DNA of 59,051 bases, filler included. It is 2 parts of 2 records of this genome, joined end to end, with 100 filler letters (N's around TTAATTAATTAA, not from the genome) between each part and the next. Parts side by side here need not be neighbours in the genome. Positions count along the whole stretch, not along the records: positions 1 to 31,321 come from SRR20825006_2532; 1 more part is not named here. One strand, written 5' to 3'. Position 1 is the stretch's first letter; each line of letters begins with the position of its first letter. The notes under the pieces are model-generated. The model was not told the DNA's origin, made no database searches, and worked only from the letters and a program-made list of their open reading frames with translations. The position numbers were made by a program, and so were the translations under genes. Positions 6,388 to 31,421 of this stretch are shown piece after piece.

Positions 6388-6398
6388 TTAGCTCGTAT

Positions 6399-8326: not shown

Positions 8327-8347
8327 GAGTTGAGAAATAGTTTATGT

Positions 8348-8370
8348 TAATTTAGACCAATTCTAAATTA
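8348..8370. promoter_or_regulatory. Perfect 9-5-9 palindromic operator, probable iron-responsive (Fur-type) box upstream of hemS
   Basis: TAATTTAGA-CCAAT-TCTAAATTA, ~22 nt upstream of the hemS ATG; matches a second site at 11823-11847. Confidence 0.7.
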
Positions 8371-8383
8371 GAACTTTTCTCAT

Positions 8384-8415
8384 AAAAAAACCCACTTTTT
8401 TACGGTGGGTTTTTA
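8384..8415 (-). terminator. Rho-independent terminator after hmuY
   Basis: Minus strand AAAAACCCAC-CGTAAAAAA-GTGGGTTTTTTT, ~20 nt after the hmuY stop. Confidence 0.75.
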
Positions 8416-8435
8416 TCACATTTTTAAACTCAATT

Positions 8436-9503: not shown

Positions 9504-9517
9504 TTGATCTATGTATT

Positions 9518-14170: not shown

Positions 14171-14554
14171 TTAATCTTTTTTAGAGGGAATACATTCCTT
14201 TGCTAGAAAAAGCCAACCTAGTATAAATGCTACGCCACCAAGTGGAGTTATAGCCCCGAGCCAAGTAATGTTTGTCAATGCCAAGGTATACAGGCTGAAT
14301 GAAAAGAATAGTATTCCAACAAAGAATAAAATCCCTGACCATTTTAGGAACGAGCTTTTTTTATCGCGAGCCACAAGCCCCACTAAAACGATAGCTATTG
14401 CGTGATAAAAGTGATATTGAGCTGCGGTTTCCCAATTCCCTAACCGTTCTGGGCTTACCATATCTTTAACTGCATGTGCTCCAAAAGCGCCGAATGCAAC
14501 AGCCAATGCAGCCATGATAGCACCAACTGCAATGAGTTTATTTGATCTTTCCAT
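14171..14554 (-). CDS. DUF423 (YgdD/TMEM256) membrane protein
   Basis: GAFGAH, YHFYHA, FSFSLY, GAITPLGG. Confidence 0.9.
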   Translation of the reverse strand: MERSNKLIAVGAIMAALAVAFGAFGAHAVKDMVSPERLGNWETAAQYHFYHAIAIVLVGLVARDKKSSFLKWSGILFFVGILFFSFSLYTLALTNITWLGAITPLGGVAFILGWLFLAKECIPSKKD

Positions 14555-15210
14555 TATGCTTTAAAATCAATCTTTCGGTGAGAGCCATCACAAAATGGTT
14601 TGTTTTCAGAAGCTCCACATCTACAATAGCTCATCTTTTTGGCGGTTTCTATAGAGTTTTCAGAACCTACAACTTCATAATTTCCATTCACAAGAAAAGC
14701 GCCATTTGCTACAAGCTTTACAGTCAACTCGCCATCTAACTCTTCCGTTGGCTCTAGTTCTAAACGCTCTGGATTGTATAAACTATTCGCTTTAAAATCA
14801 GCTTCAATGTGCGAATTATCACAGAAAGGTTTATTGGATGAAGCTCCACAACGGCAAAGCGCCATTCGTGTATCTCGCATTATTTCTTCATCATCACCAT
14901 TTGTAAGAACAATATTGCCATTTAAATAAATAGGGCCATCTTCGGTGATTACTAGTTTATTTACAGGCGGAATTGCTTCAACATCTTCTACTTTTTTCAA
15001 CTGATAATGGAGCGCACCTGTAGGGCATTTTTCGATTACAGCTTTCAATTGCTCTATATCTTGAGCTCCATCTGGATTAATCCAAGGCTTTTTAGTGATA
15101 TCAAAAACCTCTGGTAAACCATGCACACATTCTTTGGCATGAATGCAACGCTTGAGGTCCCAGCTTACTTTAATTTCGTCGTTCTCGTAGGTGAATTTCT
15201 TTGATTCCAT
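14554..15210 (-). CDS. Fe-S protein: YjdI-like 4Fe-4S domain plus two CDGSH domains
   Basis: CIHAKEC...KPWINPD...CPTGAL; CRCGASSNKPFCDNSH; CRCGASENKPFCDGSH. Confidence 0.88.
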   Translation of the reverse strand: MESKKFTYENDEIKVSWDLKRCIHAKECVHGLPEVFDITKKPWINPDGAQDIEQLKAVIEKCPTGALHYQLKKVEDVEAIPPVNKLVITEDGPIYLNGNIVLTNGDDEEIMRDTRMALCRCGASSNKPFCDNSHIEADFKANSLYNPERLELEPTEELDGELTVKLVANGAFLVNGNYEVVGSENSIETAKKMSYCRCGASENKPFCDGSHRKIDFKA

Positions 15211-16194: not shown

Positions 16195-16668
16195 TTAATC
16201 CATGTTATCCATCCTTAACCACTTAGCGTAGGTTTCGTCGTCCCACATACTTTGGATGTAAGCAATTACCGCTTCTTTTTCTTCGTCATTAAGTATTCCT
16301 TTAAATGCTGGCATCGTTCCGCCAAGAGGAATACCCCCATTATCGATGGTTTCTAAAAGTACAAACTTAGGGTGATGCCAAGTATGCGCGGTTCCATTTA
16401 AAGGTGGTGCCGGAAAATTCCCCGCATCGTCGGGCCTTTTCCAATTTTCAACTATTCCCTGACCTAAGTTACCATGACATACAGCACAATTTGTAGCAAA
16501 CACTTGTTTTCCCACTTCAAACTGTTGTTCGGTAAACCATCTGTTTTCTTTGAAGGAAATAGATTCTGAGCTGACTGACTTCTTTTTTGCTTCTTTATTA
16601 CAGCTAGTAAATGAAACTCCTATTAAAGCGAAAATAAATAGTTTTAGTACTTTTTTTCTATGTGTCAT
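16195..16668 (-). CDS. Monohaem c-type cytochrome lipoprotein
   Basis: CAVCH, APPLNGTAHTWHH, distal Met in GTMPAF; lipobox FTS-C; likely start MTHRKK at 16668 rather than 16716. Confidence 0.85.
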   Translation of the reverse strand: MTHRKKVLKLFIFALIGVSFTSCNKEAKKKSVSSESISFKENRWFTEQQFEVGKQVFATNCAVCHGNLGQGIVENWKRPDDAGNFPAPPLNGTAHTWHHPKFVLLETIDNGGIPLGGTMPAFKGILNDEEKEAVIAYIQSMWDDETYAKWLRMDNMD

Positions 16669-17116
16669 TATTATACTTGATAAAGGGTATTTGATGATTT
16701 TCTGCAAGATAAACACTCAGAACGGGTAAAAAAGTAATCTGAAGAATCGGCGCCAACCCAATATTGTAATTAAATACATAGAGAGTAAGCATACTCGTAT
16801 CATAGGTCCAAAGCTCCAAGTATAATGCCATCCATTCAAGAAAGATACTGGCTCCAAAACTTAGTGCTAGTAATAATAGGTATTTTATCACTGTTTTTTG
16901 AAGTAGACCTGTTGATTTAATCAATTTCTTCAATCCTTGCCAAAGGCCTAGCACAATTAGTATATCTCCAAAAACCGCCCCCCACATCCAAAGAGTTGCT
17001 TTCAAAAATCCCCAACTCCACATCTCATAAAAAAACAGACATTGAGTAAATTCCCAAATTGTGTTTAATAGAAATGCCCAAAAAATTACTCTGGCCATTT
17101 TATTTTTTCCCATCAT
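16658..17116 (-). CDS. Hypothetical 4-TM membrane protein of the copper cluster
   Basis: LN.IWEF.Q, GD, EW.AL...W.Y..M, GL.PILQ motifs; co-oriented in the operon. Confidence 0.65.
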   Translation of the reverse strand: MMGKNKMARVIFWAFLLNTIWEFTQCLFFYEMWSWGFLKATLWMWGAVFGDILIVLGLWQGLKKLIKSTGLLQKTVIKYLLLLALSFGASIFLEWMALYLELWTYDTSMLTLYVFNYNIGLAPILQITFLPVLSVYLAENHQIPFIKYNNDT

Positions 17117-17134
17117 CCTGTATAAGAAGATAAA

Positions 17135-17617
17135 TTAGTTTCTCATAGCTCTGGATGAGCCATGATTCTGCATAATCTTCCAACCTGTTTCCGTTTTTTT
17201 GAGTACAGAGGTAGCCACCGCTTGTCTTTCTATGGTTCTACTCTCATCTCCTCCGGTCACGATCTTATAATTATACGTCTCGAAAGCCACCGCGACATTC
17301 CCTTCTATTTGTACATCCACCATGTAGTCACTAAAAGAGAATTCCTTAAACTGCCCTAACTCAGGTCCAATATGGTGATCTAGGTATTTCTTATAGGTCC
17401 CTTCATGGCTCCCATTCTCAAAAATTGCTGAGTTTTCAGTAAAAAGCTTTTCTGTGCCGGATACATCCAAAGCTTCAAGGGCGTTCTTGTAAGCCTTCAG
17501 CACTTTCTTTACTGCTACTGTTTCTTCGGAAGAAATCATTTCTTTATGATCATTATGCTGAGCATATATCAATCCAGAAGGTGATAATAAAAGAAATATT
17601 AATATAATTTTTTTCAT
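17135..17617 (-). CDS. Exported NTF2/SnoaL-like (DUF4440/YybH-like) protein
   Basis: Signal peptide; FENG...Y.DHHIGPEL; T.VLKK...GWKI...H.S. Confidence 0.75.
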   Translation of the reverse strand: MKKIILIFLLLSPSGLIYAQHNDHKEMISSEETVAVKKVLKAYKNALEALDVSGTEKLFTENSAIFENGSHEGTYKKYLDHHIGPELGQFKEFSFSDYMVDVQIEGNVAVAFETYNYKIVTGGDESRTIERQAVATSVLKKTETGWKIMQNHGSSRAMRN

Positions 17618-17660
17618 AATCGTGTAGACTCTTTATTGGTTTATAGACTTGAATTTAACT

Positions 17661-18794
17661 TTACAGCTTGGTCATGCTCATTTTCTCTAAAACTACGGTC
17701 CCACTCCCATTAATTTTCAACCCTACTCCACCTGCTTTAGGAGCATCACTATGTCCGTGAACTATCATTTTTTTATCCACATAACCTCTAAAATGAGTTC
17801 CATTTCCTACAACCCGAACAAACATAGGCTTTGAAACATCTGTAGTTCCTTCTTCAAATATTTCTTCCTTTCCTTTTAACATTCGGCCTTGCTTAACAGC
17901 ACCATTTGAAGAAATTGATACAAAGTCGAAGTTAAGCTCGTCTTGCACATTGTTTGTCAGCATCACTATTCCATTAAGTGTTGAAATGTCTATATAATAA
18001 TCTACTTGAACCATTTTATAGGATTCGTGCCCTACAAAAAAGCCATTTAAATTACTTCCACTCAAAATTAGTGCATAACTGCCTTTGGTAGTTTTCACTG
18101 CTTCGGCATTTACTTCTTCTAAACTTCCTGTTAACCAATGGAAATTTTTCTTCAAATCCGAAATGGCATTTTTATCTATGTTCCATTCCCAGTTTCCGTT
18201 ATCTACCACTTTAAAAGCGGTAGCTCTTCCTATTGAAACATCATCATGACTTTCTTCTGGTTCTGCATGTTCACCTTCATCTTCACCAGGCTCATCGTGA
18301 TCTGTTTCATGATCGGGCTGTGCCGGATTATCTAAGTTAACAGCCTGAACTCCTACTCCATGCTGATAAACCATCTGTCCTCCTCTATCACTCGTTTGAA
18401 ATAATAGAAAAGCCCCAACGAATGAAAGCAAGGTTAACCCAACTCTTATTATTTTTAGCTCAGATTTATTCCAAAAATACACTCCAATCCTCAAGAGGGC
18501 ATATAATCCCATAAACCAAACAGTGTACTCAGCCCAGTCTGCATGAGCCGTTAATAAGTTTTGAGTTTCAGCTTCAATAAAGACACTATCTGCAGCTTCC
18601 TTTCCTGAGAAATAAGTTCCCACTGCTACAATTCCTGATAGCCCATATAATATTAAATTCTTCTTTTCGTCCCACCAATCTTTAGGGAGAACATAGCCTG
18701 CCACATCCATAAGAATAGCGAGCATAAACAGTGCTATTGGGAAGTGGACGATCATGGGATGTAAGTTTGGTGCCCATTCTGGTATAAATTCCAT
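17661..18794 (-). CDS. DUF2231 membrane domain + His/acidic linker + beta-sandwich domain
   Basis: HPMIVHFPIAL, conserved His (TAH), GGQMVYQHGVGV; linker DHETDHDEPGEDEGEHAEPEESHDD. Confidence 0.72.
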   Translation of the reverse strand: MEFIPEWAPNLHPMIVHFPIALFMLAILMDVAGYVLPKDWWDEKKNLILYGLSGIVAVGTYFSGKEAADSVFIEAETQNLLTAHADWAEYTVWFMGLYALLRIGVYFWNKSELKIIRVGLTLLSFVGAFLLFQTSDRGGQMVYQHGVGVQAVNLDNPAQPDHETDHDEPGEDEGEHAEPEESHDDVSIGRATAFKVVDNGNWEWNIDKNAISDLKKNFHWLTGSLEEVNAEAVKTTKGSYALILSGSNLNGFFVGHESYKMVQVDYYIDISTLNGIVMLTNNVQDELNFDFVSISSNGAVKQGRMLKGKEEIFEEGTTDVSKPMFVRVVGNGTHFRGYVDKKMIVHGHSDAPKAGGVGLKINGSGTVVLEKMSMTKL

Positions 18795-18816: not shown

Positions 18817-20838
18817 TTATCGTTCTATTTTTAGTAATCGCGCATTCACAGCAACAACTACTGTACTTATCGACATCAAACCTGCACCAACAGCTGGATT
18901 AAGAATGATTCCAAACGAAAATAGTACGCCTGCAGCTAAAGGAATTGCGACAACGTTATAGCCTGTAGCCCAGAATAAATTTTGCACCATTTTCTTATAG
19001 GTCGCTTTGGCTAGTGAAATAAGTGCCACAACATCTTTAGGATTACTTTGTGTAAGAATGATGTCTCCAGTTTCTACCGCTACATCAGAGCCCGTTCCGA
19101 TGGCAATTCCAACGTCGGCTTGAGCTAAAGCTGGTGCGTCATTCACGCCATCGCCTGTCATCGCTACTTTTAGCCCTCGTTTCTGAACTTCCCTCACTTT
19201 ATCAGCCTTTTCATTCGGTAATACTTCTGCAAAAAACTCATCTAAACCAAGCTCTTTAGCAACATAGGCAGCGGTTTGTTTATTATCTCCAGTAAGCATA
19301 ATACACTCAATACCCATTTCGTGAAGTTGTTTTATTGCCACTTTGGAATCTTCCCTAATGGTATCTCCCAAGGCTATTGCTCCGTGTAGTTTGTCATCTA
19401 TTATTACAAATACTACCGTCTTTCCTTGCTCCGAAAGTTGTTGATATTGATTGTCTGGTAATTCAATATCATTCTCTCGGAGGTAACCAGGGCTTACTAC
19501 TTTCACCGAAAGTCCTTCTATAGTTCCTTCAATACCTTTTCCGGTGATAGAATTGAAATCATTTACTTCAAATAATGAATCTGCTGAATTAACAATTCCC
19601 TGAGCAATGGGATGCTCGGAGTTTTGTTCTAGTGAAGCTGTGATTTTTAATAATCTGTCTTTGTCATATTCATCAGTAAAATTCAAAACCTCCGTAACTT
19701 CAAAAACACCTTTTGTAAGCGTTCCTGTTTTGTCAAATATTACGGCGCCAATATTCCTAGCTTCTTCAAAAGCTGGTCTATTACGGATTAGAAATCCATT
19801 CTGTGCTGCGAGGTTTGTAGAAACCGCCACTACTAAAGGAACGGCTAACCCAAGTGCATGCGGACAAGTAATTACCATTACAGTTACAGTACGCTCTAGC
19901 GCAAAGACAAAATCTTGAGTGGTAAAGAATGTCCACACAAAAAAAGTAATCGCCCCTGCACCAAGTGCAATGATTGTAAGCCAAAAGGCTGCTCTATTCG
20001 CTAAATCTTGGGTTTTGGATTTACTGTCTTGAGCTTGTTGCACCAAGTTTATGACTTGCGACAGAAAAGAGTCTTTCCCTGTTTTATCAATTTCTATTGT
20101 TAATGAGCCCTCACCATTTACGGCGCCCCCAAGAACCTCATCGCCATCACTTTTTGAAACAGGTTTTGCTTCGCCCGTCATTAGAGATTCGTTCACTGCG
20201 CTTTTCCCTTTAACTACAAATCCATCCGCTGGAATTTTTTCACCGGGTTTAATAAGTACTCGATCTCCAACCTTCAACTCTTCTAGAGCTATGTCTTTGG
20301 TTGTGCCATCTTCCTGAACCAAATGTGCTTCTGAAGGCATCAATTTTGCTAGTTCTTCCAAAGCTTTTGAAGCACTCATTACGGATTTCATTTCGATATA
20401 ATGCCCGATAAGCATAATATCGACCAGCGTAACTAGCTCCCAGAAAAATATTTTCCCTTCCACCGCAAAAACGACCAACATACTGTATGCATACGCTGTT
20501 GTAATAGCGATAGCAATGAGCGTCATCATTCCTGGTTGCTTGTTTTTTAATTCATCTGCAAGCCCCTTAAGAAACGGCCATCCTCCATAGAAGAATACCA
20601 GACTTGAAAGAACTGCTGAAACATAAATATCACCCGTAAAAGACCAACTCTCTCTTAACCCAAGAAAATCCTGAATCATAGGTGAAAGTGCTATTATAGG
20701 AATACTTAAAGCTAAGGAAATCCAAAAGCGCTTTAAGAAATCCTGAGCCATGTGTGCATGATGATTACTATGATCTACATGCTTTTTATCATGGCCAGAG
20801 TGCCCATTTTCGTGATCGTGGTGATGTTCATGTTCCAT
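18817..20838 (-). CDS. copB: Copper-translocating P1B-3 ATPase
   Basis: His-rich N-terminus, TGE, CPHALGL, DKTGTLT, SEHP, GDGVNDAP, YN and MSxST motifs. Confidence 0.93.
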   Translation of the reverse strand: MEHEHHHDHENGHSGHDKKHVDHSNHHAHMAQDFLKRFWISLALSIPIIALSPMIQDFLGLRESWSFTGDIYVSAVLSSLVFFYGGWPFLKGLADELKNKQPGMMTLIAIAITTAYAYSMLVVFAVEGKIFFWELVTLVDIMLIGHYIEMKSVMSASKALEELAKLMPSEAHLVQEDGTTKDIALEELKVGDRVLIKPGEKIPADGFVVKGKSAVNESLMTGEAKPVSKSDGDEVLGGAVNGEGSLTIEIDKTGKDSFLSQVINLVQQAQDSKSKTQDLANRAAFWLTIIALGAGAITFFVWTFFTTQDFVFALERTVTVMVITCPHALGLAVPLVVAVSTNLAAQNGFLIRNRPAFEEARNIGAVIFDKTGTLTKGVFEVTEVLNFTDEYDKDRLLKITASLEQNSEHPIAQGIVNSADSLFEVNDFNSITGKGIEGTIEGLSVKVVSPGYLRENDIELPDNQYQQLSEQGKTVVFVIIDDKLHGAIALGDTIREDSKVAIKQLHEMGIECIMLTGDNKQTAAYVAKELGLDEFFAEVLPNEKADKVREVQKRGLKVAMTGDGVNDAPALAQADVGIAIGTGSDVAVETGDIILTQSNPKDVVALISLAKATYKKMVQNLFWATGYNVVAIPLAAGVLFSFGIILNPAVGAGLMSISTVVVAVNARLLKIER

Positions 20839-20845
20839 AATTCAA

Positions 20846-21364
20846 TCAATTTATAGTTTTAACTGTTGCTCCGCATTTGTGCATTTTCTTACCGAAATAG
20901 GGGTTTCTAATTTCTTCTTTATCACTCATCCATTTAGCGCCTTTACCATCGTTCGCCATTGGACAAAACTGTACAAATAGAGCACTTTTATTGTAGCCCT
21001 GATTTTCAACAGCTTTCAACAGTTCCGTAGTAATTCCTTCTAAAGAACCTCTAAGCTCCCCAATGTTCTTAGCGGAAGATGCTTTTTCTACTGCCATAAG
21101 CATTGTGGAGTGATGAATCTCATGCATTTTTTGATGCTCTTTATGTTCATTCATTTCATTATTAGACCTCACTTCTTTCGTAAAGTTCGAAATGTGATTT
21201 TGAGCTACTTCAAAATTATCGGCAACCAAAGCATCTTTTGCTGCTAGGTATTCAGTTATCAGCGTAGATAAATGGTCATTATGAGCGTGCTCTTTATTCT
21301 CTTGAGCCTGAATAGTAACGGCACTTAGAAATAGTGCTAGTAGTGTAAATATGTACGGTTTCAT
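20846..21364 (-). CDS. Exported DUF3347 metal-binding protein
   Basis: Signal peptide; YL..KDALV; CPMA....GA.W.S....I.NPYFG..M..CG; His-rich. Confidence 0.85.
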   Translation of the reverse strand: MKPYIFTLLALFLSAVTIQAQENKEHAHNDHLSTLITEYLAAKDALVADNFEVAQNHISNFTKEVRSNNEMNEHKEHQKMHEIHHSTMLMAVEKASSAKNIGELRGSLEGITTELLKAVENQGYNKSALFVQFCPMANDGKGAKWMSDKEEIRNPYFGKKMHKCGATVKTIN

Positions 21365-21383
21365 TATATAATTGATTTATAAA

Positions 21384-23207
21384 TTATGATTCGATTTTTA
21401 AAATTGTTTCGCCACAGTTATTCATTTTATCTCCGAAGTATGGATTGGCAATTTCTTCGGTATCACTTAACCAATAGCCGCCTTTCCCGCCGTCTGTCAT
21501 TGGGCAAAACTGCTGATAAACCACTCCATTAATGCCAAAAATTTTAACACTTTCTATAAGCTTTTCTGATAACGAGAGGAATACTGTTCTTTGCTTATCA
21601 ATATTCTTTTCGGCGGCTATCGCAGCTGAGTAGTTATTTAAACTTCCTAATTGCCCCATCCATTGGATGTGTAAATCCCCTTGTACTAAACTCATATCTA
21701 CCGCAGTGAGTTTAGTATTTATTAGCTTCGCCGCCCGCATTGCAGCTTCGGGATTGGTTTGATTGAGTGCATCTTTAAGTTCCAAATATTCGTCAACTAC
21801 TCCGGTTAACTGTTGTTTAAATTCTACAGGAACAGATTCCGCGTCCAACTTCCTAGTATTTCCCTTTTCCTTGGATGTAGATTTAGAAACCACGTCAGCT
21901 TTCATTTCGTCAGTCATGATATGACCTTCATGCCCCGTTCTATTTGCTCCCGTGCCTGGGGTTCTGTTCATCATGCTAAGCTTGTCGGCAAGTTGGGCAG
22001 CACTGTCAATTTTAAAGGTTCCATGTTTCACTACGGTTTCACCGGCTTCTAATCCATCTAATATTTCATAGTAATCGCCGATTCTTTTACCTAGCGTAAC
22101 TTCTCTGGCTTTAAAAGTGGGTTTATCATTTCCCTTCTCTTCTACATAAACGATGGAACGAGTTCCCGTCCACATAACAGCTGACTTTGGAATAAGTAGC
22201 CCCGGAGTAGAGCTTTTATTACCTCGAACTATTCCTTCTGCTAACATTCCTGGTTTCAGATTAAGGTCTTTATTTTGAATGTTCGTTCTAATTTTCACCG
22301 TTCTGGACGAGTTATTAAGAATGGGATCTATAAAATCGATTTTTGAAGTAAAAGTGCGACTAGGTAATGATGGAATCGTAAACGTAATTTCATCTCCTTT
22401 GGAAATACTCCCTAGATCTGACTCATACGCATCAAATTGCACCCAAATAGAGCTAAGTTCGCTTATCTCGTACATCAAATCACCACGTACTAGATGATCA
22501 CCAACCGAAACGAACCTTTTCAAAACATATCCACTCTTATGTGCATGGATATCAATATTAGAATCAGGAGTTCCGTTTGCTAAAATCTCATCAATTTGAG
22601 CTGGTGGAATTTTCCAATTCATCAGTTTCTTTCTTGCCGCTTGATATAACATGGGGTTACTATCTTTAGCCGCGTAGGCTTCAAAAAGTTCCTTTTGAGC
22701 GGTATATAACTCTGGCGAGTACACCCGAGCCACTTTTGCTCCTTTGGTTATATAATCTCCAGTAAAATTAACATATAGCTGCTCCACTCTACCATGAAAA
22801 TGCGCCGGAATCTGTGCAATTTCACGTTCATCAATTACTACTTTTCCTGGTAAGCGCACTTCGATTGGCGCACTGCTAATACGAACTTCTGTGGTTTCAA
22901 TTTCGGCTAGTTTTAAAGCCGCAAACGACATTGTAATTGCATCTGGATCTTCATTCTCAGAATTATTGTCGTTTACAGGAATGAGATTCATTCCACAAAT
23001 CGGGCAATTTCCTGGCTCATTTTGGCGAACCGATGGATGCATACTACAACTGTATACGAGATTTCCTTCCTCGTCGGTATGCGTTTCCGTTAAGTGCTCA
23101 TCTATGCTTTGCGTGGCTGGTGCTGAGTTTCCAAAGAAAATCGCTCCCAACGTAATGCCAACGAGCCCAATAACTAAATAAATGGAGTATGTTTTTAACT
23201 TTTTCAT
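21384..23207 (-). CDS. cusB: CusB-type RND periplasmic adaptor with N-terminal heavy-metal-binding domain and C-terminal DUF3347
   Basis: YSCSMHP...PGNCPICGMNL; YSPEL; LKPGM; C-terminal CPM...WLS...NPYFG..M..CG. Confidence 0.88.
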   Translation of the reverse strand: MKKLKTYSIYLVIGLVGITLGAIFFGNSAPATQSIDEHLTETHTDEEGNLVYSCSMHPSVRQNEPGNCPICGMNLIPVNDNNSENEDPDAITMSFAALKLAEIETTEVRISSAPIEVRLPGKVVIDEREIAQIPAHFHGRVEQLYVNFTGDYITKGAKVARVYSPELYTAQKELFEAYAAKDSNPMLYQAARKKLMNWKIPPAQIDEILANGTPDSNIDIHAHKSGYVLKRFVSVGDHLVRGDLMYEISELSSIWVQFDAYESDLGSISKGDEITFTIPSLPSRTFTSKIDFIDPILNNSSRTVKIRTNIQNKDLNLKPGMLAEGIVRGNKSSTPGLLIPKSAVMWTGTRSIVYVEEKGNDKPTFKAREVTLGKRIGDYYEILDGLEAGETVVKHGTFKIDSAAQLADKLSMMNRTPGTGANRTGHEGHIMTDEMKADVVSKSTSKEKGNTRKLDAESVPVEFKQQLTGVVDEYLELKDALNQTNPEAAMRAAKLINTKLTAVDMSLVQGDLHIQWMGQLGSLNNYSAAIAAEKNIDKQRTVFLSLSEKLIESVKIFGINGVVYQQFCPMTDGGKGGYWLSDTEEIANPYFGDKMNNCGETILKIES

Positions 23208-23218
23208 AGGTAGATGGT

Positions 23219-24619
23219 TTAGTAATTAATTTCGTTTGGTGAGATGCTGTTTACACCATTTAGATACTGGATATAGCTCATTGCTCTAAATTCATCCGCT
23301 TTGGCTTGATCTCGCTTCAGCTGGTAGTCGAGTAATTTGCGCTGCAATCGTAATATTTCTTCGAACCCAGCATTACTTGTTGAATAGGCATCTGTCAAAA
23401 TTCGGATAGCCTGCTCAATGCGTTGAATCTGTTTCTCATTGTATAATTCAAATCTGCGTTGGGCATCTTTCACATCTCGTTGAGCAGTTAAAAAACTGGT
23501 TTCAAGTTGGTTTTCTAACGCTGTTATATCTTGTTGAACAGAACTCAAATTCAGCTTTGCTTGGCGCACATTGGCGTTGTATTTATTTCTGAAGAGAGGG
23601 ATTCTAAAACTCGCCCGTGCTATTAATGCGTCTTTTCCATTATTCGCTAACCCAACAACATCGGTTCGTTTCCCTGTGGCGATGTAATCAAAGCCGATTC
23701 CAAATCCTGGCTTACCTTCTTTTGCCGCCAGATCAACAGCATTGCTAGAAGCTTCTTTTGTATATCGAAGTTTAGATAAGCTTGGATTCTGAGCTAGCCG
23801 ACTAACTTCAAGGTCTACCGAATTTTCTGAATTATTTAATTCTGATGGTGTTGCTACTTTGTCGTTCGGCTCCATATTTCTCAACTCATTAAACTCTTGA
23901 ATTAAAAGGCTTTTGTTATCCTGAAGGAGAGCAAGTGTTGTTTTCAAATCTTCTTGCTCAATTTGTGCTCTCAGAACATCTACTTGGGAAGTAAGTCCAT
24001 TCTCGTATTGCTGAAGACTCAGTTCAAGCAATGTGTTTATGATGGAAAGATTCCCTTTTACGCTTTCAATATTTCGATCTATCACATACAACTCTCCCCA
24101 AAGTTCTTCCATTTGGTAAAAAAGTCGATTTCTACGTTCCTGAAATTGTTCGAATCTTGCTTTAGCTTCTGCTGTTGAAATAGCGCGATTGTCTGCTAAA
24201 GACCCAAACCAAGGAAACATCTGAGTAACCGAAATCCGAGCTTTTTGTGGCCCCAGACGTGTTTCGATAGGGCTGATGAAATACGCAAAAGCCACTTCTG
24301 GATCTGGTAGTGTTCCTGTTAGCGAACGCTCTTCCAATGCCGAACGATAGTTTAGAAATAAAGCATATAACTCTGGATTATTCTGAGCTGCTTCTTGCTG
24401 ATAGTTTTGAAGGCTTTGGCCGTTTAAATTTGAGATTGAAACCAAGCTCATTAACATAACCAAGCATATAGCTAAAAACCTATTCCTCGGAAGGAAATTT
24501 GCTTTTTTAGCCAACTGATAAGTCTCCCCTTGAGGGGAGATGATTGAATCGGTAGTTCCCGATTTGATCTGAGGGGTGTCGTCCATTCTGTTTTCCATAT
24601 GTTGAAATATTCGTCTCAT
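23219..24619 (-). CDS. TolC/CusC-family outer-membrane efflux protein
   Basis: LPDP, ETRLGPQ, QMFPWFG, IPLF; likely start at 24619 by ATGA overlap with the cusA stop (exact start uncertain). Confidence 0.85.
   Translation of the reverse strand: MRRIFQHMENRMDDTPQIKSGTTDSIISPQGETYQLAKKANFLPRNRFLAICLVMLMSLVSISNLNGQSLQNYQQEAAQNNPELYALFLNYRSALEERSLTGTLPDPEVAFAYFISPIETRLGPQKARISVTQMFPWFGSLADNRAISTAEAKARFEQFQERRNRLFYQMEELWGELYVIDRNIESVKGNLSIINTLLELSLQQYENGLTSQVDVLRAQIEQEDLKTTLALLQDNKSLLIQEFNELRNMEPNDKVATPSELNNSENSVDLEVSRLAQNPSLSKLRYTKEASSNAVDLAAKEGKPGFGIGFDYIATGKRTDVVGLANNGKDALIARASFRIPLFRNKYNANVRQAKLNLSSVQQDITALENQLETSFLTAQRDVKDAQRRFELYNEKQIQRIEQAIRILTDAYSTSNAGFEEILRLQRKLLDYQLKRDQAKADEFRAMSYIQYLNGVNSISPNEINY
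24521..24580. repeat. GC-rich double-hairpin REP-like element in the 5' end of the TolC gene
   Basis: TCTCCCCT-TG-AGGGGAGA perfect inverted repeat, AATCGG/CCGATT stem and GAGGGGTGT end in otherwise AT-rich DNA; only one copy in this window. Confidence 0.5.
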
Positions 24620-27600
24620 TTCAAGCTCCTTTTCAATTGAAATTCTTTCCAAATAGCGTATAAAACGGGCACTACAAACAAGGTTACAATCTGCAACATC
24701 ATCCCCCCAATACTTGGAATAGCCATCGGAACCATAATATCAGAGCCTCGCCCTGTAGAGGTTAAAATTGGAATTAGTGCAAGAATGGTTGTGGCGGTTG
24801 TCATCAGAGTTGGGCGAATACGGCGTGTACTCGCTTCAATAACTGTGGCTCTGATTTCTTCTTTTGTTGTGGGTTTTACTTTCTCAAAAAGCTGATCGAG
24901 ATACGTAGCCATTACCACGCCACCATCCGAAGCAATTCCAAAGAGTGCAATAAAGCCGACCCAAACAGCCACGCTTAAATTCACGGTTCCCATTTGGAAT
25001 AAATCTCTCAAGTTCTGCCCGAAAAGATCGATGTTTAAGAACCACGGTTGTCCGTATAACCAGAGCAATAGAAAGCCGCCTGCCCAAGCCACAAAAATGC
25101 TCGTGAATATCATTCCTGTAGTGGCCGCCGATTTGAACTGGAAATACATAATCAAGAAGATGGCGAAAAGGGCGATGGGCAAAATGATGCCTAATCGTTT
25201 CTCGGCGCGAACTTGATTCTCGTAGTTTCCAGCAAATTTAAAACTAACCCCAGCTGGAACTGTCAACTGACCATTTTCGATGTATTCTGAAATAAGATTT
25301 TGAGCATTTTCTACAACTTCTACTTCCGCAAATCCATCTAGCTTGTCAAAAATAACGAAGCCGATAAGAAAGGTATCTTCACTTTTAATTGCTTGTGGCC
25401 CTTGTCTATACTCGATGCTTGCCAATTGCTCTAGCGGAATTTGCGCTCCCTGTTTTGTGGGAATGAGCATTCGCGCTATTGCTTCGGGACTATCTCGTAA
25501 TTCTCTTGCATAGCGAACTCGAATCGGATAACGCTCTCTTCCTTCCACAGAAGTTGATACTCGTTTTCCTCCAATTCCAACGGTTACAAATTGTTGGGCG
25601 TCCAGTACAGAAAGTCCGTATCTGGCTAATTTTTCTCTATCCCAGTTAATTTCTAGATAGGGCTTTCCCACTATTCGATCCGCGAAAATAGAAGGAGTAT
25701 TAACTCCGCGAACATCTTTCAAAACTTCCTCAAGTTGGAGCCCAAATTTTTCAATCGTTTCTAAGCTGGAGCCTTTAACTTTAATTCCCATTGGCGCCCG
25801 CATTCCCGATTGAAGCATCACTAATCGTGTTTGAATAGGCTGCAGTTTTGGAGCAGATGTTGTGCCTAAAAGCTTAGATGCGGCCACAATTTCATTCCAG
25901 ATATCATCGGGAGAATGGATGTGATCTCGCCATTGGCGGAAATACTCTCCTTTTGCATCCGGTATGAGATTTTCGTTTTCATCACGAACAAAATTTTCGT
26001 CGTCATCAACCTTAAAGCGAACTCTTCGTCCGTTTTCATCGGTTTTGTATTCTGATTTGTAGATAACCACATTCTCGAACATGGAAATTGGAGCGGGGTC
26101 GAGTGCGGATTCCGTTCGTCCCATTTTACCAACTACGGTTTCTACTTCGGGGATGGAAGCCACAGACATGTCAATTTTCTGCATCACGTCTTTAGCTTCT
26201 TCTATTCCTGCATGAGGCATCGTTGTTGGCATCAGCAAAAATGCGCCTTCATCTAAAGCAGGCATAAACTCTTTCCCTAAACCTGGAAAAGTATGTGATG
26301 TGGCGCTCCAAACACTGGTTGTTTTAATATCCCAACCAACACTTTCAAAGCTTCTTTCCACAAAACCGAACACTCTCGAAAAACCTAGCCAAATAACTAT
26401 TCCGAATAAAACCAGAAACGATGGAATAGATAGAAACGCAATTTTATGATCTAGACACCAAGATATGAGATTATGGTAATAGCGAATAACCAACCAAAAC
26501 ATAGCTAAGATGCTCCCAATCAGAATTATTACGAAAAACAGATTCCAGATTAGCGCAACACTTGGTCCAAGTGGCAACCAGTATTGCGTAAGTAACCAAG
26601 TAACTATTATTACGCTGAGTAGGTTGTTATAAAAGGACGTTTTTTGAATCTGCTTATGTTGGAAGAAAACGGGTGCACCATTAATTATTCCAAAACCGAG
26701 TAATGCTAGCCCGGCCCAAACAGGTCCAACAAATAAAACAACGATTCCCGCCAGAACTAGTAAAGCATTCCAGATTAACTTCACAATTCGGTTGCTGATT
26801 TTTATTGAAAATACCCAATGTGCAAAAGGTGGAATTAGCGTTATTGAAATGATAATGGAAGCTATGAGCGCGAATGTTTTAGTGTAAGCAAGCGGCTTAA
26901 AAAGTTTACCTTCGGCAGCAATCATGGTAAATACTGGCAAGAAACTTACAATAGTTGTAGAAACGGCTGTAATTACTGCTGATGCAACTTCCGTTGTGGC
27001 GTTGTAAATAACTTCTAGTAGTGAATCGCCTTCAGCTTTTTCTTCCATATGCCTGAGCATATTTTCCGAAAGGATTACCCCCATATCCACAATAGTTCCT
27101 ATAGCGATGGCTATCCCCGAAAGCGCTACAATATTGGCGTCAACTCCAGCATATTTCATCGCGATGAATGTCATGAGTACCGCTACTGGTAACATTCCTG
27201 CAATCAGAAACGACGTTCTTAGATTCATTACCATCACTACAATCACAATAATGGTAATCAGGATTTCGAGCGTCAGTGCTTCTTCTAGTGTACCTAGTGT
27301 TTCGGCAATCAATTCTGAGCGATCATAAAACGGTACAATCGTAACTTTTGAAGTGCTTCCGTTTGCCAATTTTTTAGAAGGCAATCCTGTTGAAAGCTCA
27401 GCGATTTTCTCTTTAATGTTGTTTATCACTTCTTGTGGATTTGCGCCTTGCCTTGCCACCACCACTGCGCCTACCGCATCTGCGCCGGCTTTATCTAGAG
27501 CTCCGCGCCGCATTGCAGGTCCCATGCTTACAAAAGCCACATCTTTAATTCTGATGGGCACATTATTCACCACTTTTACTACGGCTTCTTCTAAATCTTC

Positions 27601-28374
27601 GGTGCTTTTTATATATCCCAATCCACGAACTAAATATTCGGCGTTGTTTAGTTCTATGGTTCTTGCCCCAACTTCGGCATTGCTTTCTCTAACAGCTTGG
27701 TATACTTCGTTTAGGCTAATTCCATACACTTGAAGCGTTGTGGGATTCACATCAACTTGGTATTCTTTTACGTAGCCACCAATAGGTGCAACTTCAGCAA
27801 CTCCGCTGGCTCCAGAAAGAGCGTAGCCCACATAAAAATCTTGGATGCTTCGTAATTCTTGAAGATCCCATCCGCCTGCAGGTTTTCCTTCTTCATTTCG
27901 CCCTTCTAAGGTGTACCAAAAAACTTGCCCAAGTGCGGTGGCATCAGGACCTAGTGCTGGTTGAACATCACTAGGAAGCGTTCCAGCGGGCAACGAATTT
28001 AGCTTTTCGAGAATGCGTGAGCGACTCCAATAAAATTCTACGCCTTCTTCAAAAATCACAAAGATGCTCGAAACGCCTAACATCGAAGTGCTACGAATGG
28101 TTTTAACGCCTGGAACTGTGAGAAGTTGAGTTGTTAATGGATAGGTAATTTGATCTTCCACATCTTGTGGAGATTGCCCAGTCCATTCGGTGTATACAAT
28201 TTGCTGATTCTCTCCCAAATCGGGAATTGCATCAACAGGTACAGGGTCGTTTGGGATGAAACTTAGATTCCAAGCAAACGGTGAGGTCGCTATTCCCCAA
28301 AAAACGAGTGCTAAAAGTAGTAATAGAGCAACTAGCTTGTTCTCTAAAAAGAAGCGAATAATTTTATTAAGCAT
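24616..28374 (-). CDS. cusA: CusA-type Cu(I)/Ag(I) heavy-metal efflux RND permease
   Basis: DAIPDLGENQ, GPDATALG, AIAIGTIVD; Met triad equivalents LLMPT, PISMFE, RLVMLQ; RIRPTLMT. Confidence 0.92.
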   Translation of the reverse strand: MLNKIIRFFLENKLVALLLLLALVFWGIATSPFAWNLSFIPNDPVPVDAIPDLGENQQIVYTEWTGQSPQDVEDQITYPLTTQLLTVPGVKTIRSTSMLGVSSIFVIFEEGVEFYWSRSRILEKLNSLPAGTLPSDVQPALGPDATALGQVFWYTLEGRNEEGKPAGGWDLQELRSIQDFYVGYALSGASGVAEVAPIGGYVKEYQVDVNPTTLQVYGISLNEVYQAVRESNAEVGARTIELNNAEYLVRGLGYIKSTEDLEEAVVKVVNNVPIRIKDVAFVSMGPAMRRGALDKAGADAVGAVVVARQGANPQEVINNIKEKIAELSTGLPSKKLANGSTSKVTIVPFYDRSELIAETLGTLEEALTLEILITIIVIVVMVMNLRTSFLIAGMLPVAVLMTFIAMKYAGVDANIVALSGIAIAIGTIVDMGVILSENMLRHMEEKAEGDSLLEVIYNATTEVASAVITAVSTTIVSFLPVFTMIAAEGKLFKPLAYTKTFALIASIIISITLIPPFAHWVFSIKISNRIVKLIWNALLVLAGIVVLFVGPVWAGLALLGFGIINGAPVFFQHKQIQKTSFYNNLLSVIIVTWLLTQYWLPLGPSVALIWNLFFVIILIGSILAMFWLVIRYYHNLISWCLDHKIAFLSIPSFLVLFGIVIWLGFSRVFGFVERSFESVGWDIKTTSVWSATSHTFPGLGKEFMPALDEGAFLLMPTTMPHAGIEEAKDVMQKIDMSVASIPEVETVVGKMGRTESALDPAPISMFENVVIYKSEYKTDENGRRVRFKVDDDENFVRDENENLIPDAKGEYFRQWRDHIHSPDDIWNEIVAASKLLGTTSAPKLQPIQTRLVMLQSGMRAPMGIKVKGSSLETIEKFGLQLEEVLKDVRGVNTPSIFADRIVGKPYLEINWDREKLARYGLSVLDAQQFVTVGIGGKRVSTSVEGRERYPIRVRYARELRDSPEAIARMLIPTKQGAQIPLEQLASIEYRQGPQAIKSEDTFLIGFVIFDKLDGFAEVEVVENAQNLISEYIENGQLTVPAGVSFKFAGNYENQVRAEKRLGIILPIALFAIFLIMYFQFKSAATTGMIFTSIFVAWAGGFLLLWLYGQPWFLNIDLFGQNLRDLFQMGTVNLSVAVWVGFIALFGIASDGGVVMATYLDQLFEKVKPTTKEEIRATVIEASTRRIRPTLMTTATTILALIPILTSTGRGSDIMVPMAIPSIGGMMLQIVTLFVVPVLYAIWKEFQLKRSLK

Positions 28375-28385
28375 GATTTACTGAG

Positions 28386-28506
28386 TTAGAAATACTTCGA
28401 TGAACTGCTCGCACAGTTTGATTTATTCTAAAGTTTGGACCGCTAACCCAACTGCGGATTTCTCCCGCTAGGATTGGTTCAAACCGATAAATTCGAAGTG
28501 TTCTAA
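28386..28506 (-). ncRNA. Candidate structured cis-regulatory RNA between the leader ORF and cusA
   Basis: Closing stem UUAGAA.ACUUCGA/UCGAAGU..UUCUAA; long arm capped GGGA-GAAA-UCC; short arm AACUGU-GCGA-GCAGUU; G-U wobbles and GNRA loops only on the mRNA strand; folded by eye. Confidence 0.55.
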
Positions 28507-28949
28507 ATCAAGAAAGAAGAGTTCGCCAGAAAGAGTAGTGGAGGCGAATAGGAATTGGAGAGGTGGATTGGAATTGGCTTTTCTGAAACCGAAGATACGT
28601 TTTCGTCTACGCTTAAAATCGCAAACAACACCTGAACTGGACTAATTTTTACCGTTGAAGGAACTGGTATCGTGGCTGGTGCTGTTGCCCTAATTATACA
28701 ACAATCGGTAAGAAACACACAATCGTCAGAATTTGAAGGCATGCCTTCATGGCTAGTAGTCATCGGACAATCATCATCCATCATAGAATCATGATTCATA
28801 GCACTAGATGGCATTGTACCCATCTCCATCATTTGCTCGCATAATTCCATGGGATTTGCAGAAAGCCCCATAGAAGGCAAGATGCCAATAAGAAAACTAA
28901 AACCGAGTACGGCCGATAGTATCTGAGATATGTTTCGTAATTTTTTCAC
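28503..28949 (-). CDS. Exported Met/Cys/His-rich leader protein (HYC_CC_PP / DUF2946 / CutF-like)
   Basis: Hydrophobic N-terminus; ~10 Met, 5 Cys (incl. CC) and 2 His in the central region; C-terminal YSPP...SSFLI; first gene of the copper operon. Confidence 0.65.
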   Translation of the reverse strand: MKKLRNISQILSAVLGFSFLIGILPSMGLSANPMELCEQMMEMGTMPSSAMNHDSMMDDDCPMTTSHEGMPSNSDDCVFLTDCCIIRATAPATIPVPSTVKISPVQVLFAILSVDENVSSVSEKPIPIHLSNSYSPPLLFLANSSFLI

Positions 28950-29251
28950 ACCAAAAAGTAATCAATTAGCTGACCAACATAAATACAATATTATTTACCA
29001 CCTCTTTTTGACATACCTTACATAATCTTATTTCATTCGATAATCGCCATTTAATCTACTGGGAAGTGCTTTTCATGAAATTGGACTGAAATTCCAGCAC
29101 AAAGAAATCACCTTTTTATATAACAATTAGTCAGAATTGTATAAGTAGAAACCACGACATTTAGGGATATTCTACCTGCCTTTTAAAAGCTCCGATGTGT
29201 TATAAGAGCTTAGAGTTCAAACAAACAAACCAATCAAAAACTGATTTTTTA

Positions 29252-29713
29252 ATGAAATATTTTGAACTAAAAATTCCACCAGTAGTGGTATCTCTTATTT
29301 TTTTAGGATTGATTTGGGTTGTTAACCAATGGCCTTTTATTGAAGGGTTACGATTCAAGACAGAAACTGGAATCGTTATTATCATGCTCGTTATTGGAGC
29401 TTTGGTTGGAATTCTGGGAGTAGTTGAATTCAGACGGAAATCGACCACTGTAAATCCTCACAAACCTAATAACACTTCCGCTCTTGTGACATCAGGTATT
29501 TATACTTTCTCGCGAAATCCCATGTATTTTGCCCTACTCATTGTTTTAGGTGCGGCCGCTTTTAAATGGGGAAGTTTATTCGGTTTTCTCATTCTTCCAT
29601 TATTCGTTTACTACATGAATCAATTTCAGATTAAACCCGAAGAAGCTGTATTAGAACAAATATTCGGCGAAGAATTTTTAGAATATAAAGAAGAAGTCCG
29701 ACGGTGGGCTTGA
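29252..29713 (+). CDS. Isoprenylcysteine carboxyl methyltransferase (ICMT/PEMT) family membrane protein
   Basis: TTVNP, LVTSGIY..SRNPMY, QIKPEE..L...FGEE...Y...VRRW; start MKYFELKIPP preferred over 29195. Confidence 0.85.
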   Translation: MKYFELKIPPVVVSLIFLGLIWVVNQWPFIEGLRFKTETGIVIIMLVIGALVGILGVVEFRRKSTTVNPHKPNNTSALVTSGIYTFSRNPMYFALLIVLGAAAFKWGSLFGFLILPLFVYYMNQFQIKPEEAVLEQIFGEEFLEYKEEVRRWA

Positions 29714-29751
29714 GTTTGTTTTAGAAATTGTCAGGTAATTTTACAGTCAGC

Positions 29752-29775
29752 AAAGCTCTCAAAATGAGCTTTTTT
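29752..29775 (+). terminator. Probable intrinsic terminator after the ICMT gene
   Basis: AAAGCTC-TCAAAAT-GAGCTTT followed by a T run. Confidence 0.5.
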
Positions 29776-29782
29776 CTAAAAC

Positions 29783-30886
29783 CTAATTCACTATACTATT
29801 CGTTTCAACGCTATAAATGATATTTCTATAACCATCTAGAATAAATACCCAATCTTCATTAGCGGAAAACTTATGGAAATTAATTTTATCTCCTTCTAAA
29901 TTTTTAAAACTAGCTTTCCGCGTCTCCTCTTTACCGCTTAGATCAATTACATAAAGCTCAGTTTCTAAACTTACAAGCAATTTTCCATGTACTAAGAACA
30001 TATCCCTTACGATATTCTTAACCCCACCACTTTCATTTTCAGGTTTCTTTTCAAGAGGAACGTTAAAGTCTTTAATTTTTTGATTAGGAAGTAAATTAAT
30101 GACATTCTTTGTACGATTTAACTCTAAAAAAACTAGTGGTAAGCCTTTATAAGCAAAAACCAAGTCTTCCCTTTTATTTCCAATAGCATATACAACATCG
30201 TTATATGTGATGGGCTGATATCCCATTGGAATTATCCTCTTTACCAACCCTTTCTTAAACTCACCGAATGAATTCCATTCTATTAATGTATATTCTTCAT
30301 GGTTTTGGGTAGGCCAGATATAACTATTATCAGTTAATACATCCATATAAACAGACACAGTAGATATGGGCAAGTTGGCAGAACAAACTCTGTCTATTTC
30401 TTTACTTTTGCTATTTAGAACTAACATGCATGCTTGTCCTGAGTCTAAAATATATGCTAAAGAATCCTTCTCCACAGAAAAAAACATCGAACTCGGCCGA
30501 ATAACTTCCTGTGGACCTTTTCCGTTTTCTACTACAACTCTCTGATTCCCTACTTTTTCATTTATTCCTATTTCTATAATTCTACCCATTAGTGGGTCAG
30601 CTACCCACAACGAATTCTTATCAAACTGCTTCATATATCCTAAACGGACAATCAATCCATTTGAATCTGTTTTACTATTGTACAATTCATTAATGGTTAG
30701 CGTCTCTTCCGATATTTCTGCCCAATCATCAATACCATAGTATGTGTATGAGCCGAAGTCAGGAATCTTGTCATTGTATTCCTCATTTTTTGAAGTACAA
30801 CTGAGGCTTATAACCATGATAATAGCTGAAAGAATTAGAGCTTCTTTTTTTACTCTTCGATATGCAACATATAAGTTCATCAACAA
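29783..30886 (-). CDS. Probable 6-bladed beta-propeller (TolB-like) lipoprotein
   Basis: Lipobox ISLS-C; LWVAD, GKGPQEVIRP, YILD blade motifs; start uncertain. Confidence 0.65.
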   Translation of the reverse strand: MLMNLYVAYRRVKKEALILSAIIMVISLSCTSKNEEYNDKIPDFGSYTYYGIDDWAEISEETLTINELYNSKTDSNGLIVRLGYMKQFDKNSLWVADPLMGRIIEIGINEKVGNQRVVVENGKGPQEVIRPSSMFFSVEKDSLAYILDSGQACMLVLNSKSKEIDRVCSANLPISTVSVYMDVLTDNSYIWPTQNHEEYTLIEWNSFGEFKKGLVKRIIPMGYQPITYNDVVYAIGNKREDLVFAYKGLPLVFLELNRTKNVINLLPNQKIKDFNVPLEKKPENESGGVKNIVRDMFLVHGKLLVSLETELYVIDLSGKEETRKASFKNLEGDKINFHKFSANEDWVFILDGYRNIIYSVETNSIVN

Positions 30887-31321: not shown

Positions 31322-31421
31322 NNNNNNNNNNNNNNNNNNNNNNNNNNNNNNNNNNNNNNNNNNNNTTAATTAATTAANNNNNNNNNNNNNNNNNNNNNNN
31401 NNNNNNNNNNNNNNNNNNNNN
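31322..31421. other. Artificial contig linker (44 N + TTAATTAATTAA + 44 N)
   Basis: Exactly 100 nt with a six-frame stop cassette; abrupt GC and taxon change across it. Confidence 0.97.

Follow-up and report, generated by a model that had tools for sequence, protein, structure and literature searches.

The question raised by this locus is what a short open reading frame placed directly before a copper efflux operon does for the genes behind it. The window, by which we mean the whole 59,051-nucleotide stretch of DNA analysed, consists of a Balneola contig of about 39% GC and an unrelated one of about 55% GC, with two N runs (31322-31421) between them. The left contig is assigned to Balneola because the N-terminus of its cusA product shares 99% identity with its counterpart in a Balneola sp. 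MAG; the nearest-genome match (G001) appears to belong to the right-hand part. As far as the consulted portions of the works compared here extend (PMC9973294, PMC9426467, PMC12992588), copper-sensing leaders have been tested only in Proteobacteria. Comparative sequence analysis and folding models indicate that the open reading frame, hereafter the leader, is real and conserved and likely acts in cis, and we lean, by a modest margin over even, towards reading it as a nascent-chain copper sensor that would hold the ribosome on its last codons by a copper-dependent arrest at or near termination.

The leader and its operon

Translation of 28503-28949 on the minus strand gives, letter for letter, the protein quoted in the first-pass annotation of this DNA, with 148 residues, a GTG start and a TAG stop. 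The signal-like segment described there can be read in residues 1-31 (a basic KKLR, a hydrophobic core and L-S-A at 29-31), and the Met-rich segment is equally evident, residues 32-84 containing 10 Met, 5 Cys, 11 Asp/Glu and no Lys or Arg. The term "Pro-rich spacer" was too strong: proline is present but modest, at 6 of 49 residues. Two adjacent prolines, P136-P137 of 148, are separated from the stop by 11 residues, as the annotation had it. The parts of the leader are as follows.

28503..28949, minus strand: leader open reading frame, likely on a leaderless mRNA (homologues in 188 of 283 Balneolales genomes by a search with the 69-row alignment; RNA contigs end at 28947 and 28953)
28857..28949, minus strand: predicted Sec signal peptide, residues 1-31 (sequence reading, homologues, AF2 helix at 5-28)
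28740..28850, minus strand: Met-rich acidic loop, residues 34-70, carrying the conserved Cys37 and Cys61; its length and composition vary
28698..28721, minus strand: Cys cluster C77-x5-C83-C84 (C-x5-CxC in the family), a candidate Cu(I) site
28551..28697, minus strand: spacer or "ruler", conserved in length and not in sequence (mean top-residue frequency 0.25)
28503..28550, minus strand: C-terminal tail YSPPLLFLANSSFLI-TAG, a register-fixed motif and candidate arrest element at or near termination

Among 69 homologues, the -1 column of the signal peptide is Ala in 48 and the -3 column is Leu in 38. AF2, run with the alignment, returned neither strands nor a domain for the leader protein (pTM 0.26), a model too poor for a fold search. 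Pfam and NCBIfam profile searches with the protein gave no match at E up to 1, and named members of the family are annotated "hypothetical protein".

The leader is, as had been claimed, the first gene of a copper operon: 128 nt separate it from the cusA ATG, and the gene on its other side is transcribed divergently.

24616..28374, minus strand: cusA/czcA-family heavy-metal RND transporter, 1252 aa (TIGR00914, 771 bits, cut-off 701)
23219..24652, minus strand: outer membrane efflux protein, CusC/TolC-like (PF02321)
21384..23207, minus strand: CusB-like adaptor with HMBD and DUF3347 (profile matches)
20846..21364, minus strand: DUF3347 protein (profile match)
18817..20838, minus strand: copper-translocating P1B ATPase (TIGR01511, 635 bits, cut-off 397)
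16195..18794, minus strand: DUF2231, SnoaL-like, unnamed membrane protein and cytochrome c genes, co-directional

The genes at 16195..18794 probably belong to the same operon, judging from the short gaps. Elsewhere on the contig, translations suggest a heme-uptake-like cluster at 4529-11806 (minus strand), whose products we take to be a TonB receptor, an HmuY-like lipoprotein, a HemS-like protein and an ABC transporter. At 14554-15210 (minus strand) there is a small protein with two CRCG..S.NKPFCD..H repeats, which presumably resemble CDGSH iron-sulfur domains.

Conservation of the leader

Relatives of cusA were found in 213 of the 283 Balneolales genomes searched, and 110 of the listed Balneolales cusA loci together with the window formed a synteny sample of 111 loci. 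A sequence pattern detects a leader before cusA in 106 of these. The five misses comprise two loci that plainly have a leader, one contig end, one frameshifted tail and one leader that ends a residue early. A leader stands before cusA in 108 of 110 informative Balneolales loci. In L180 (G118) the leader tail is frameshifted and the cusA frame is open for only 655 aa, which may reflect a decaying operon or an assembly error. The family amounts to 303 clusters at 50% identity in a large sequence library. Twenty further leader matches, chosen because they were absent from the cusA list, precede multicopper oxidases (10), outer membrane efflux proteins (3), cusA (3) or a contig end (4); the five oxidases scanned match TIGR01480 at E up to 2e-121, below the cut-off of that model. 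These oxidase neighbours point to a copper function and parallel the CutF-CutO and CopL-CopA arrangements.

Within the protein, C83 is invariant (69 of 69), and C37, L141, F146 and L147 are conserved at 90% or more; the cysteine columns C37, C61 and C77 stand at 97%, 81% and 80%. The last Cys pair is of the CxC type in 59 of 80 members and of the CC type in 4. The first-pass annotation had made methionine the defining feature of the sensor, and this part of its reading is not sustained. Met columns in the loop are 3-54% conserved, with only one above 50%, and the 61 residues ending at the last Cys hold a family median of 4 Met (0-12), against 11 in the window protein. Met and His together make up a median of 19% of the C37-C83 loop, whose length is loose (43.1±7.1, range 19-64), and the window protein lies at the Met-rich end of the family. 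On sequence comparison, the Met cluster is an accessory, variable Met/His loop and not a conserved sensor.

What is held constant is the distance from the cysteines to the end. The last Cys lies 61-67 aa before the stop in 78 of 80 dereplicated members; this interval measures 64.0±1.5 aa, compared with 82.4±8.0 from the start to the last Cys (n=77). The tail of the Balneolales leaders, PP[LI][FYW]Lx[NY]xxFL[IN]-TAG, keeps a fixed register with the stop: Leu is found at -8 in 103 of 106 leaders, Phe at -3 in 100, Leu at -2 in 104, and Pro at -12 and -11 in 94 and 86. The stop itself is TAG in 92 of 106 leaders, as against 19 of 74 background ORFs, although the loci are related to one another and such counts overstate their independence. 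Part of the conservation of the tail, in the last codon and the stop, is driven by the RNA. The SPP that the annotation proposed as a terminal arrest motif is not supported either: it stands 11 codons upstream of the stop, PP is missing from 11 of 106 leaders, and in the window leader the prolines occupy -13/-12, leaving Leu at -11, where the family has its second conserved Pro.

Promoter and start of the leader transcript

28955..28960, minus strand: predicted Bacteroidota-type -7 element (TAnnnT), from which transcription would start at the GTG

In 43 of 46 GTG-start homologues the first base of TAnnnT falls between -13 and -11, and in 37 of them exactly at -12; among 48 other operon-first ORFs, 8 have it in this range, as do 2 of 80 cusA starts. 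Leaders of the HYC_CC_PP type, a Bacteroidota family compared below, show the element at leaderless spacing in only 11 of 43. No sigma-70 consensus was found upstream of the leader on its own strand and close to its start. A metatranscriptome contig covers 28312-28947. Another contig, whose source run is RNA by guess only, stops at 28953 with an adapter-like loose end, which we take to match the template-switch oligo. With a single mismatch, whose position is our own reading, the adapter junction would fall just before the GTG. RNA contigs of this kind cannot show expression level or a single transcript, and missing RNA cover upstream of 28953 is no evidence alone. According to the parts of the sources consulted, the Bacteroidota -7 element has T-12, A-11 and T-7 relative to +1, and most transcripts carry leaders (PMC6847099), while strand invasion can generate such adapter junctions (PMC3853366); another junction of the same run resembles a strand-invasion product. 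Promoter spacing and one adapter-ended RNA contig make it likely that the leader mRNA is leaderless.

A predicted RNA helix over the cusA start

28375..28502, minus strand: structured intergenic region, 128 nt, with no Rfam family and no intrinsic terminator
28493..28510, minus strand: 5' arm of the predicted clamp, comprising the last codons, the stop and 10 nt after it (folding, covariation)
28382..28400, minus strand: 3' arm of the predicted clamp, 8-26 nt before the cusA ATG (folding)

The leader had also been said to overlap a structured RNA, and its last two codons and TAG do lie in the basal helix of a predicted structure (z = -3.17) that none of 200 shuffles equalled in stability. The pair probabilities of this helix, which we call the clamp, are 0.87-1.0 throughout -5 to +3, the mismatched -2 aside. 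The Rfam scan returned just two chance matches, a search for an intrinsic terminator in the leader-cusA gap found none, and no Shine-Dalgarno motif is evident before cusA.

Several comparisons across loci bear on the clamp. The codon for Leu-2 ends in G in 75 of 80 leaders. The duplex between stop arm and start arm is worth -13.4 kcal/mol for cognate arms and -8.7 for swapped arms, and the cognate duplex beats at least 95 of 100 shuffles in 52 of 79 loci, with the cognate arm being the best partner in just 6 of 79 rows. Downstream of the stop, bases +3, +4 and +5 are paired in 69, 72 and 64% of cases, against 38, 46 and 46% for swapped arms, with up to six pair types; of the 51 short-gap loci, this test covers the 36 in which the last codon and stop provided an anchor, the test bases being excluded from the anchoring. 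The Asn/Ile swap of the last codon is mirrored on the opposite arm (A-U in 14, U-A in 11, unpaired in 8; n=33). The named 9-bp helix reaches 82.7% pairing in a structure-blind alignment, compared with 15-47% for slid controls and with 7 of 500 shuffles reaching it. Its covariation is modest (34 of 500 shuffles), and changes on both sides occur in just 2 pairs. No consensus structure emerged from RNAalifold on a gap-rich MAFFT alignment of 38 leader-cusA gaps.

The clamp is not uniform across the family. Where the gap exceeds 200 nt (28 loci), there is mostly no ribosome-dependent opening (median drop 0.4 kcal/mol, 7 of 28), and a clear opening is predicted in only 5 of 10 oxidase loci. One long-gap subgroup (L150, L192, L194, L198, L200, L218 and L223; gaps of 300-380 nt) has the tail PPLWLxYDTFL[MN], a hairpin directly 3' of the stop and shared internal hairpins, with no evident stop-codon clamp; most of its members carry purine-rich, Shine-Dalgarno-like runs near the cusA ATG. 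On balance, we are fairly confident that the leader is coupled in cis to cusA through the clamp.

Where a ribosome would open the clamp

The effect of a ribosome on this structure was modelled by removing the RNA beneath it (P site plus 12 nt, an assumed footprint) and computing the cost of opening -15 to +13 of cusA. In the 51 loci with gaps of at most 200 nt, the median cost is 8.3 kcal/mol for the free RNA, 8.0 with the ribosome at Pro-11, 8.2 at -6, 4.9 at -4 and 3.2-3.6 at -3 to -1. The window behaves likewise, at 7.2 kcal/mol when free, 5.7 at Pro-11 and 1.4-3.2 on the last three codons. In these folding models, the helix would be opened only by a ribosome on the last four codons and not by one at PP, so a pause at SPP alone could not switch cusA on. 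HYC_CC_PP-type leaders agree: a drop of at least 2 kcal/mol is predicted at the last codon in 36 of 45 loci and at -14 or -11 in 6 of 45, the set being the 45 of 69 loci that remain after 24 without such a leader, with one row that is not a true leader.

A further indication comes from 21 Bacteroidaceae loci, of which 11 have leaders with RAPP, 4 have leaders without it, 3 have another gene and 3 have no leader. In the 11 RAPP leaders, the P-site Pro lies 72-77 residues after the Cys pair and is followed by 3-13 residues, and the four family-mates that lack RAPP reach their C-terminus 73-78 residues beyond the Cys pair. In the consulted part of PMC12992588, RAPP arrests with its third residue in the P site. 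RAPP thus stands where the other members end, which supports an arrest at the terminus. That source also describes RAPP-type copper leaders as missing from Bacteroidota; we observed RAPP-ending leaders of the HYC_CC_PP type in L043, L064/L250, L079 and L251-L260, all Bacteroidaceae.

The strongest competitor, which we regard as possible but rather unlikely, is a gate at the prolines with the polarity of CruR: ribosomes would come to a default pause at PP, still 11 codons away from the clamp, leaving cusA off, and copper would release them to melt the helix in passing. Balneolales leaders measure 52.0±1.5 from Cys to PP and those of the HYC_CC_PP type 53.4±1.5, whereas the distances from Cys to stop are 64 and 70.4; the Cys-to-PP distance is thus the more constant between families and the nearer to the 45 of CruR and CutF, which favours PP as the functional pause. 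The folding model also suits a default pause, as a ribosome at PP leaves the clamp closed, and a Pro at -13 (48 of 106 leaders) produces PPP in many relatives. Stalling in CruR is moreover relieved by copper, according to the part of PMC9426467 consulted. On the other hand, the best-conserved residues follow PP and those before it are only weakly conserved. Arrest peptides act through residues that are already in the tunnel. PP is lacking in the 11 Balneolales leaders mentioned above and in the HYC-type leader L268, the RAPP variants place the arrest at the position of the C-terminus and not at the upstream Pro, and the PP-to-stop distance is free of indels, a constancy that a gate at the prolines would not need. 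We therefore prefer arrest at the end of the leader: the caveat in the first-pass annotation that the arrest point may be at termination has become the better-supported reading, on the evidence of the opening models, the HYC_CC_PP-type leaders and the RAPP variants.

Transcriptional regulators near the locus

The operon had been called regulator-less. This describes the window correctly, as no AraC match lies within it (the contig ends at 31321), but it is specific to the strain, since all five nearest genomes have, 1-1.6 kb upstream and on the far side of the divergent methyltransferase, an AraC regulator that bears a CxxC near its N-terminus. Synteny with four of the five breaks at 29723-29724, and a contig from another run spans 27800-30200 in the arrangement of the window, which identifies the AraC difference as strain variation. 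Past 29724, the near-identical L226-L228 and L032 have, with gene names taken from translations, an AraC (N-terminal CxxC), a P-type ATPase, a second AraC, a CopA-like ATPase and SCO/PCuAC-like genes. From 29724 the window carries a TolB-like propeller gene in their place, the metal island being replaced or moved. A two-component system at 952-3047 was considered as the operon regulator and rejected: it scores below the heavy-metal cut-offs, with the PhoB and WalK models on top.

It is improbable, in our judgement, that the leader merely licenses cusA by melting the clamp regardless of metal while copper control is transcriptional, through AraC (N-terminal CxxC) or MerR. The AraC genes of the nearest genomes would suit this explanation, and among the 89 loci scanned (of 101 extracted) the nearest upstream ORF is AraC in 10, MerR in 1 and LuxR in 1; however, 77 give no regulator match. 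A TGTGYAW...TTTT motif lies at exactly -56 of the leader GTG in 19 of 80 loci (L121, L127, L141, L192 and others) and is a candidate activator or UP site, but it is not clearly present in the window and none of the 19 motif loci is among the 10 adjacent to AraC. Coupling that ignores metal also leaves the invariant Cys at a fixed distance from the stop unexplained. As AraC or MerR stands beside a minority of loci, some control may be transcriptional; such input is possible, yet it is not a constant part of the locus.

A proposed mechanism

Under the preferred reading, arrest at the end of the leader, the promoter would start the mRNA at the GTG and the signal peptide would bring the chain into Sec during synthesis. 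The family comparison shows the Cys cluster at a constant distance of 64 residues from the stop, which would place it in the periplasm by the time the last codons are read. The last codons, TAG and the next bases are predicted, with covariation support, to form the helix that hides -8 to -26 of cusA. Without copper, by analogy with CutF, termination would be quick, the helix would re-form and the product would be degraded. Cu(I) bound to the cysteines, with help from the Met/His loop, would remove the pulling force; the PP...FL[IN] tail would then arrest the ribosome at or just before termination, and the helix would stay melted, allowing translation of cusA and the genes coupled to it. The folding models make it likely that cusA is translated only while a ribosome dwells at the leader end, and it is probably copper that would hold it there.

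The view that the leader had been understood correctly as an exported Cys upstream ORF of the CutF/CruR kind, likely acting in cis on copper genes, is supported by synteny, the fixed Cys-to-end ruler, the absence of a predicted fold and the RNA clamp, while its Met-sensor component falls away. Least probable of all, and by some distance doubtful, is a stable periplasmic Met/Cys copper chaperone or buffer in a CusF/SilE-like role, placed first in the operon for stoichiometry only: the signal peptide and the Met- and His-rich loop would fit it, and CutF was initially conjectured to be a chaperone (PMC9426467, discussion, consulted in part), but there is no predicted AF2 fold, the spacer is conserved in length and not in sequence, and the synonymous-codon and stop bias and the compensatory pairing with the start of the next gene would serve no chaperone role.

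More tentatively, and at slightly less than even confidence, sequence patterns and folding models allow the proposal of a distinct class of arrest peptide with the form PP-x-aromatic-L-x-N-x-x-FL[IN]-stop and no RAPP or required PPP. In this class, copper-bound periplasmic Cys 64 residues away would block termination on a leaderless mRNA whose stop codon is the latch of the helix. If true, it would provide Balneolota/Bacteroidota with copper sensing without CueR or CusRS adjoining the operon, and the Bacteroidota would be using a different arrest motif that acts at termination. In the consulted part of PMC9426467, CruR works without its signal peptide, and periplasmic sensing is thus not assured. 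The comparative data nevertheless name residues, bases and ribosome positions, and they would assign a role to a family that has no annotation and, by extension, to HYC_CC_PP.

Comparison with known leader families

The mechanisms of CutF and CruR are the two that have been tested, as far as the consulted parts of the sources go (PMC9426467; bioRxiv 10.1101/2025.02.05.636593). CutF-like proteins are defined by rules, with Bacteroidota as their second largest group and CusA and OEP among the neighbours, so that Bacteroidota CutF-like proteins before cusA are already predicted in print, on the portion of PMC9973294 available to us. Apart from the SignalP step, the window protein falls within these rules (list D of PMC9973294): it has 148 aa, where the limit is 150 (53 of 69 homologues comply), its PP lies at P136-P137 of 148, within the last 15 residues (62 of 69), and cusA is 128 nt away. 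By eye, its putative signal peptide shows an n/h/c pattern with a conserved L-x-A. Balneolota members may be in the protein list of that paper already; six Balneolota names gave no matches in three of its small supplements (8,054 characters), which apparently lack a protein list.

From the consulted parts of PMC9973294 and bioRxiv 10.1101/2025.02.05.636593, CutF of Rhodobacter capsulatus resembles the leader in its small size, its Cys motif and PP in the last 15 residues, and probably in its Sec-type signal, and CutF and its relatives likewise stand first before copper detoxification genes (cusA, OEP, multicopper oxidase) with a downstream stem, predicted in the case of the leader, hiding the next start. 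Unlike CutF, the leader has C-x5-CxC or CC in place of CxxxC, 11 residues after PP and a Cys-to-end distance of 64 instead of about 45. Again in contrast to CutF as described there, its predicted helix takes in the final codons and stop of the leader itself, its mRNA probably lacks a 5' leader and cusA has no evident Shine-Dalgarno.

CruR (Bp2923 of Bordetella pertussis) shares with the leader a conserved Cys motif set at a constant interval from a proline motif, poor structure and a place at the head of copper operons, according to the part of PMC9426467 consulted. Its arrest at RAPP has been shown (PMC12992588, consulted in part). The suggested kinship with DUF2946/CruR (PF11162) found no support in HMM searches, with no match for the window protein and 1 of 69 members at E=0.036. 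The CruR arrangement of CxxC and a C-terminal RAPP 45 residues apart is absent, RAPP or RGPP occurring in 0 of 69 homologues and CxxC in 4 of 69. The leader further differs in preceding efflux or oxidase genes and not uptake genes, and in an output that appears translational, through the predicted clamp, rather than based on Rho-dependent termination.

The window protein equally fails to match HYC_CC_PP (NF047658, cut-off 28 bits), to which 1 of 69 members gives a match at E=0.0034; it has CC and PP, but H[YF]C is absent from all 69. The two families are nevertheless remotely related by profile-profile comparison (hhalign P=95.9, E=5.9e-9, 126 columns). HYC_CC_PP leaders of Bacteroidota stand in the equivalent place ahead of the same cusA clade (of 17 leaders tested, 15 pass the cut-off), share Y-x-PP and [ST]FLI-stop and have a similar predicted clamp, and the Balneolales leaders differ from them in PP at -12/-11 instead of -17/-16, in the strong preference for TAG and in lacking H[YF]C. 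We found no literature on HYC_CC_PP by name. Searches outside subscription journals found none on the leader family, on a stop-codon clamp before cusA or on terminal arrest there; for CutF-like proteins, cusA and leaders, only PMC9973294 was directly relevant, and for Balneola, copper and cusA, the portions of the literature seen appear to be diversity surveys only.

CopL (NF033807, cut-off 40 bits) does not match the window protein, the best homologue scoring 27.2 bits, and 8 and 3 of the 69 members give weak matches to CopL and CzcI (NF045614), respectively. CopL and CzcI are similar as Met/His/Cys-rich exported leaders before copper oxidase or RND genes. An arrest of the kind proposed, in which the stop codon would occupy the A site, recalls TnaC and PepNL (PMC11890864; TnaC per PMC9973294; both consulted in part). 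These are short, cytoplasmic and responsive to tryptophan, whereas the ligand of the leader would be sensed 64 residues away across the membrane. The principle of an exported Cys leader with a stall and a stem is already published, and what we describe is a variant, in sequence and mechanism, of the CutF/CopL/CruR kind.
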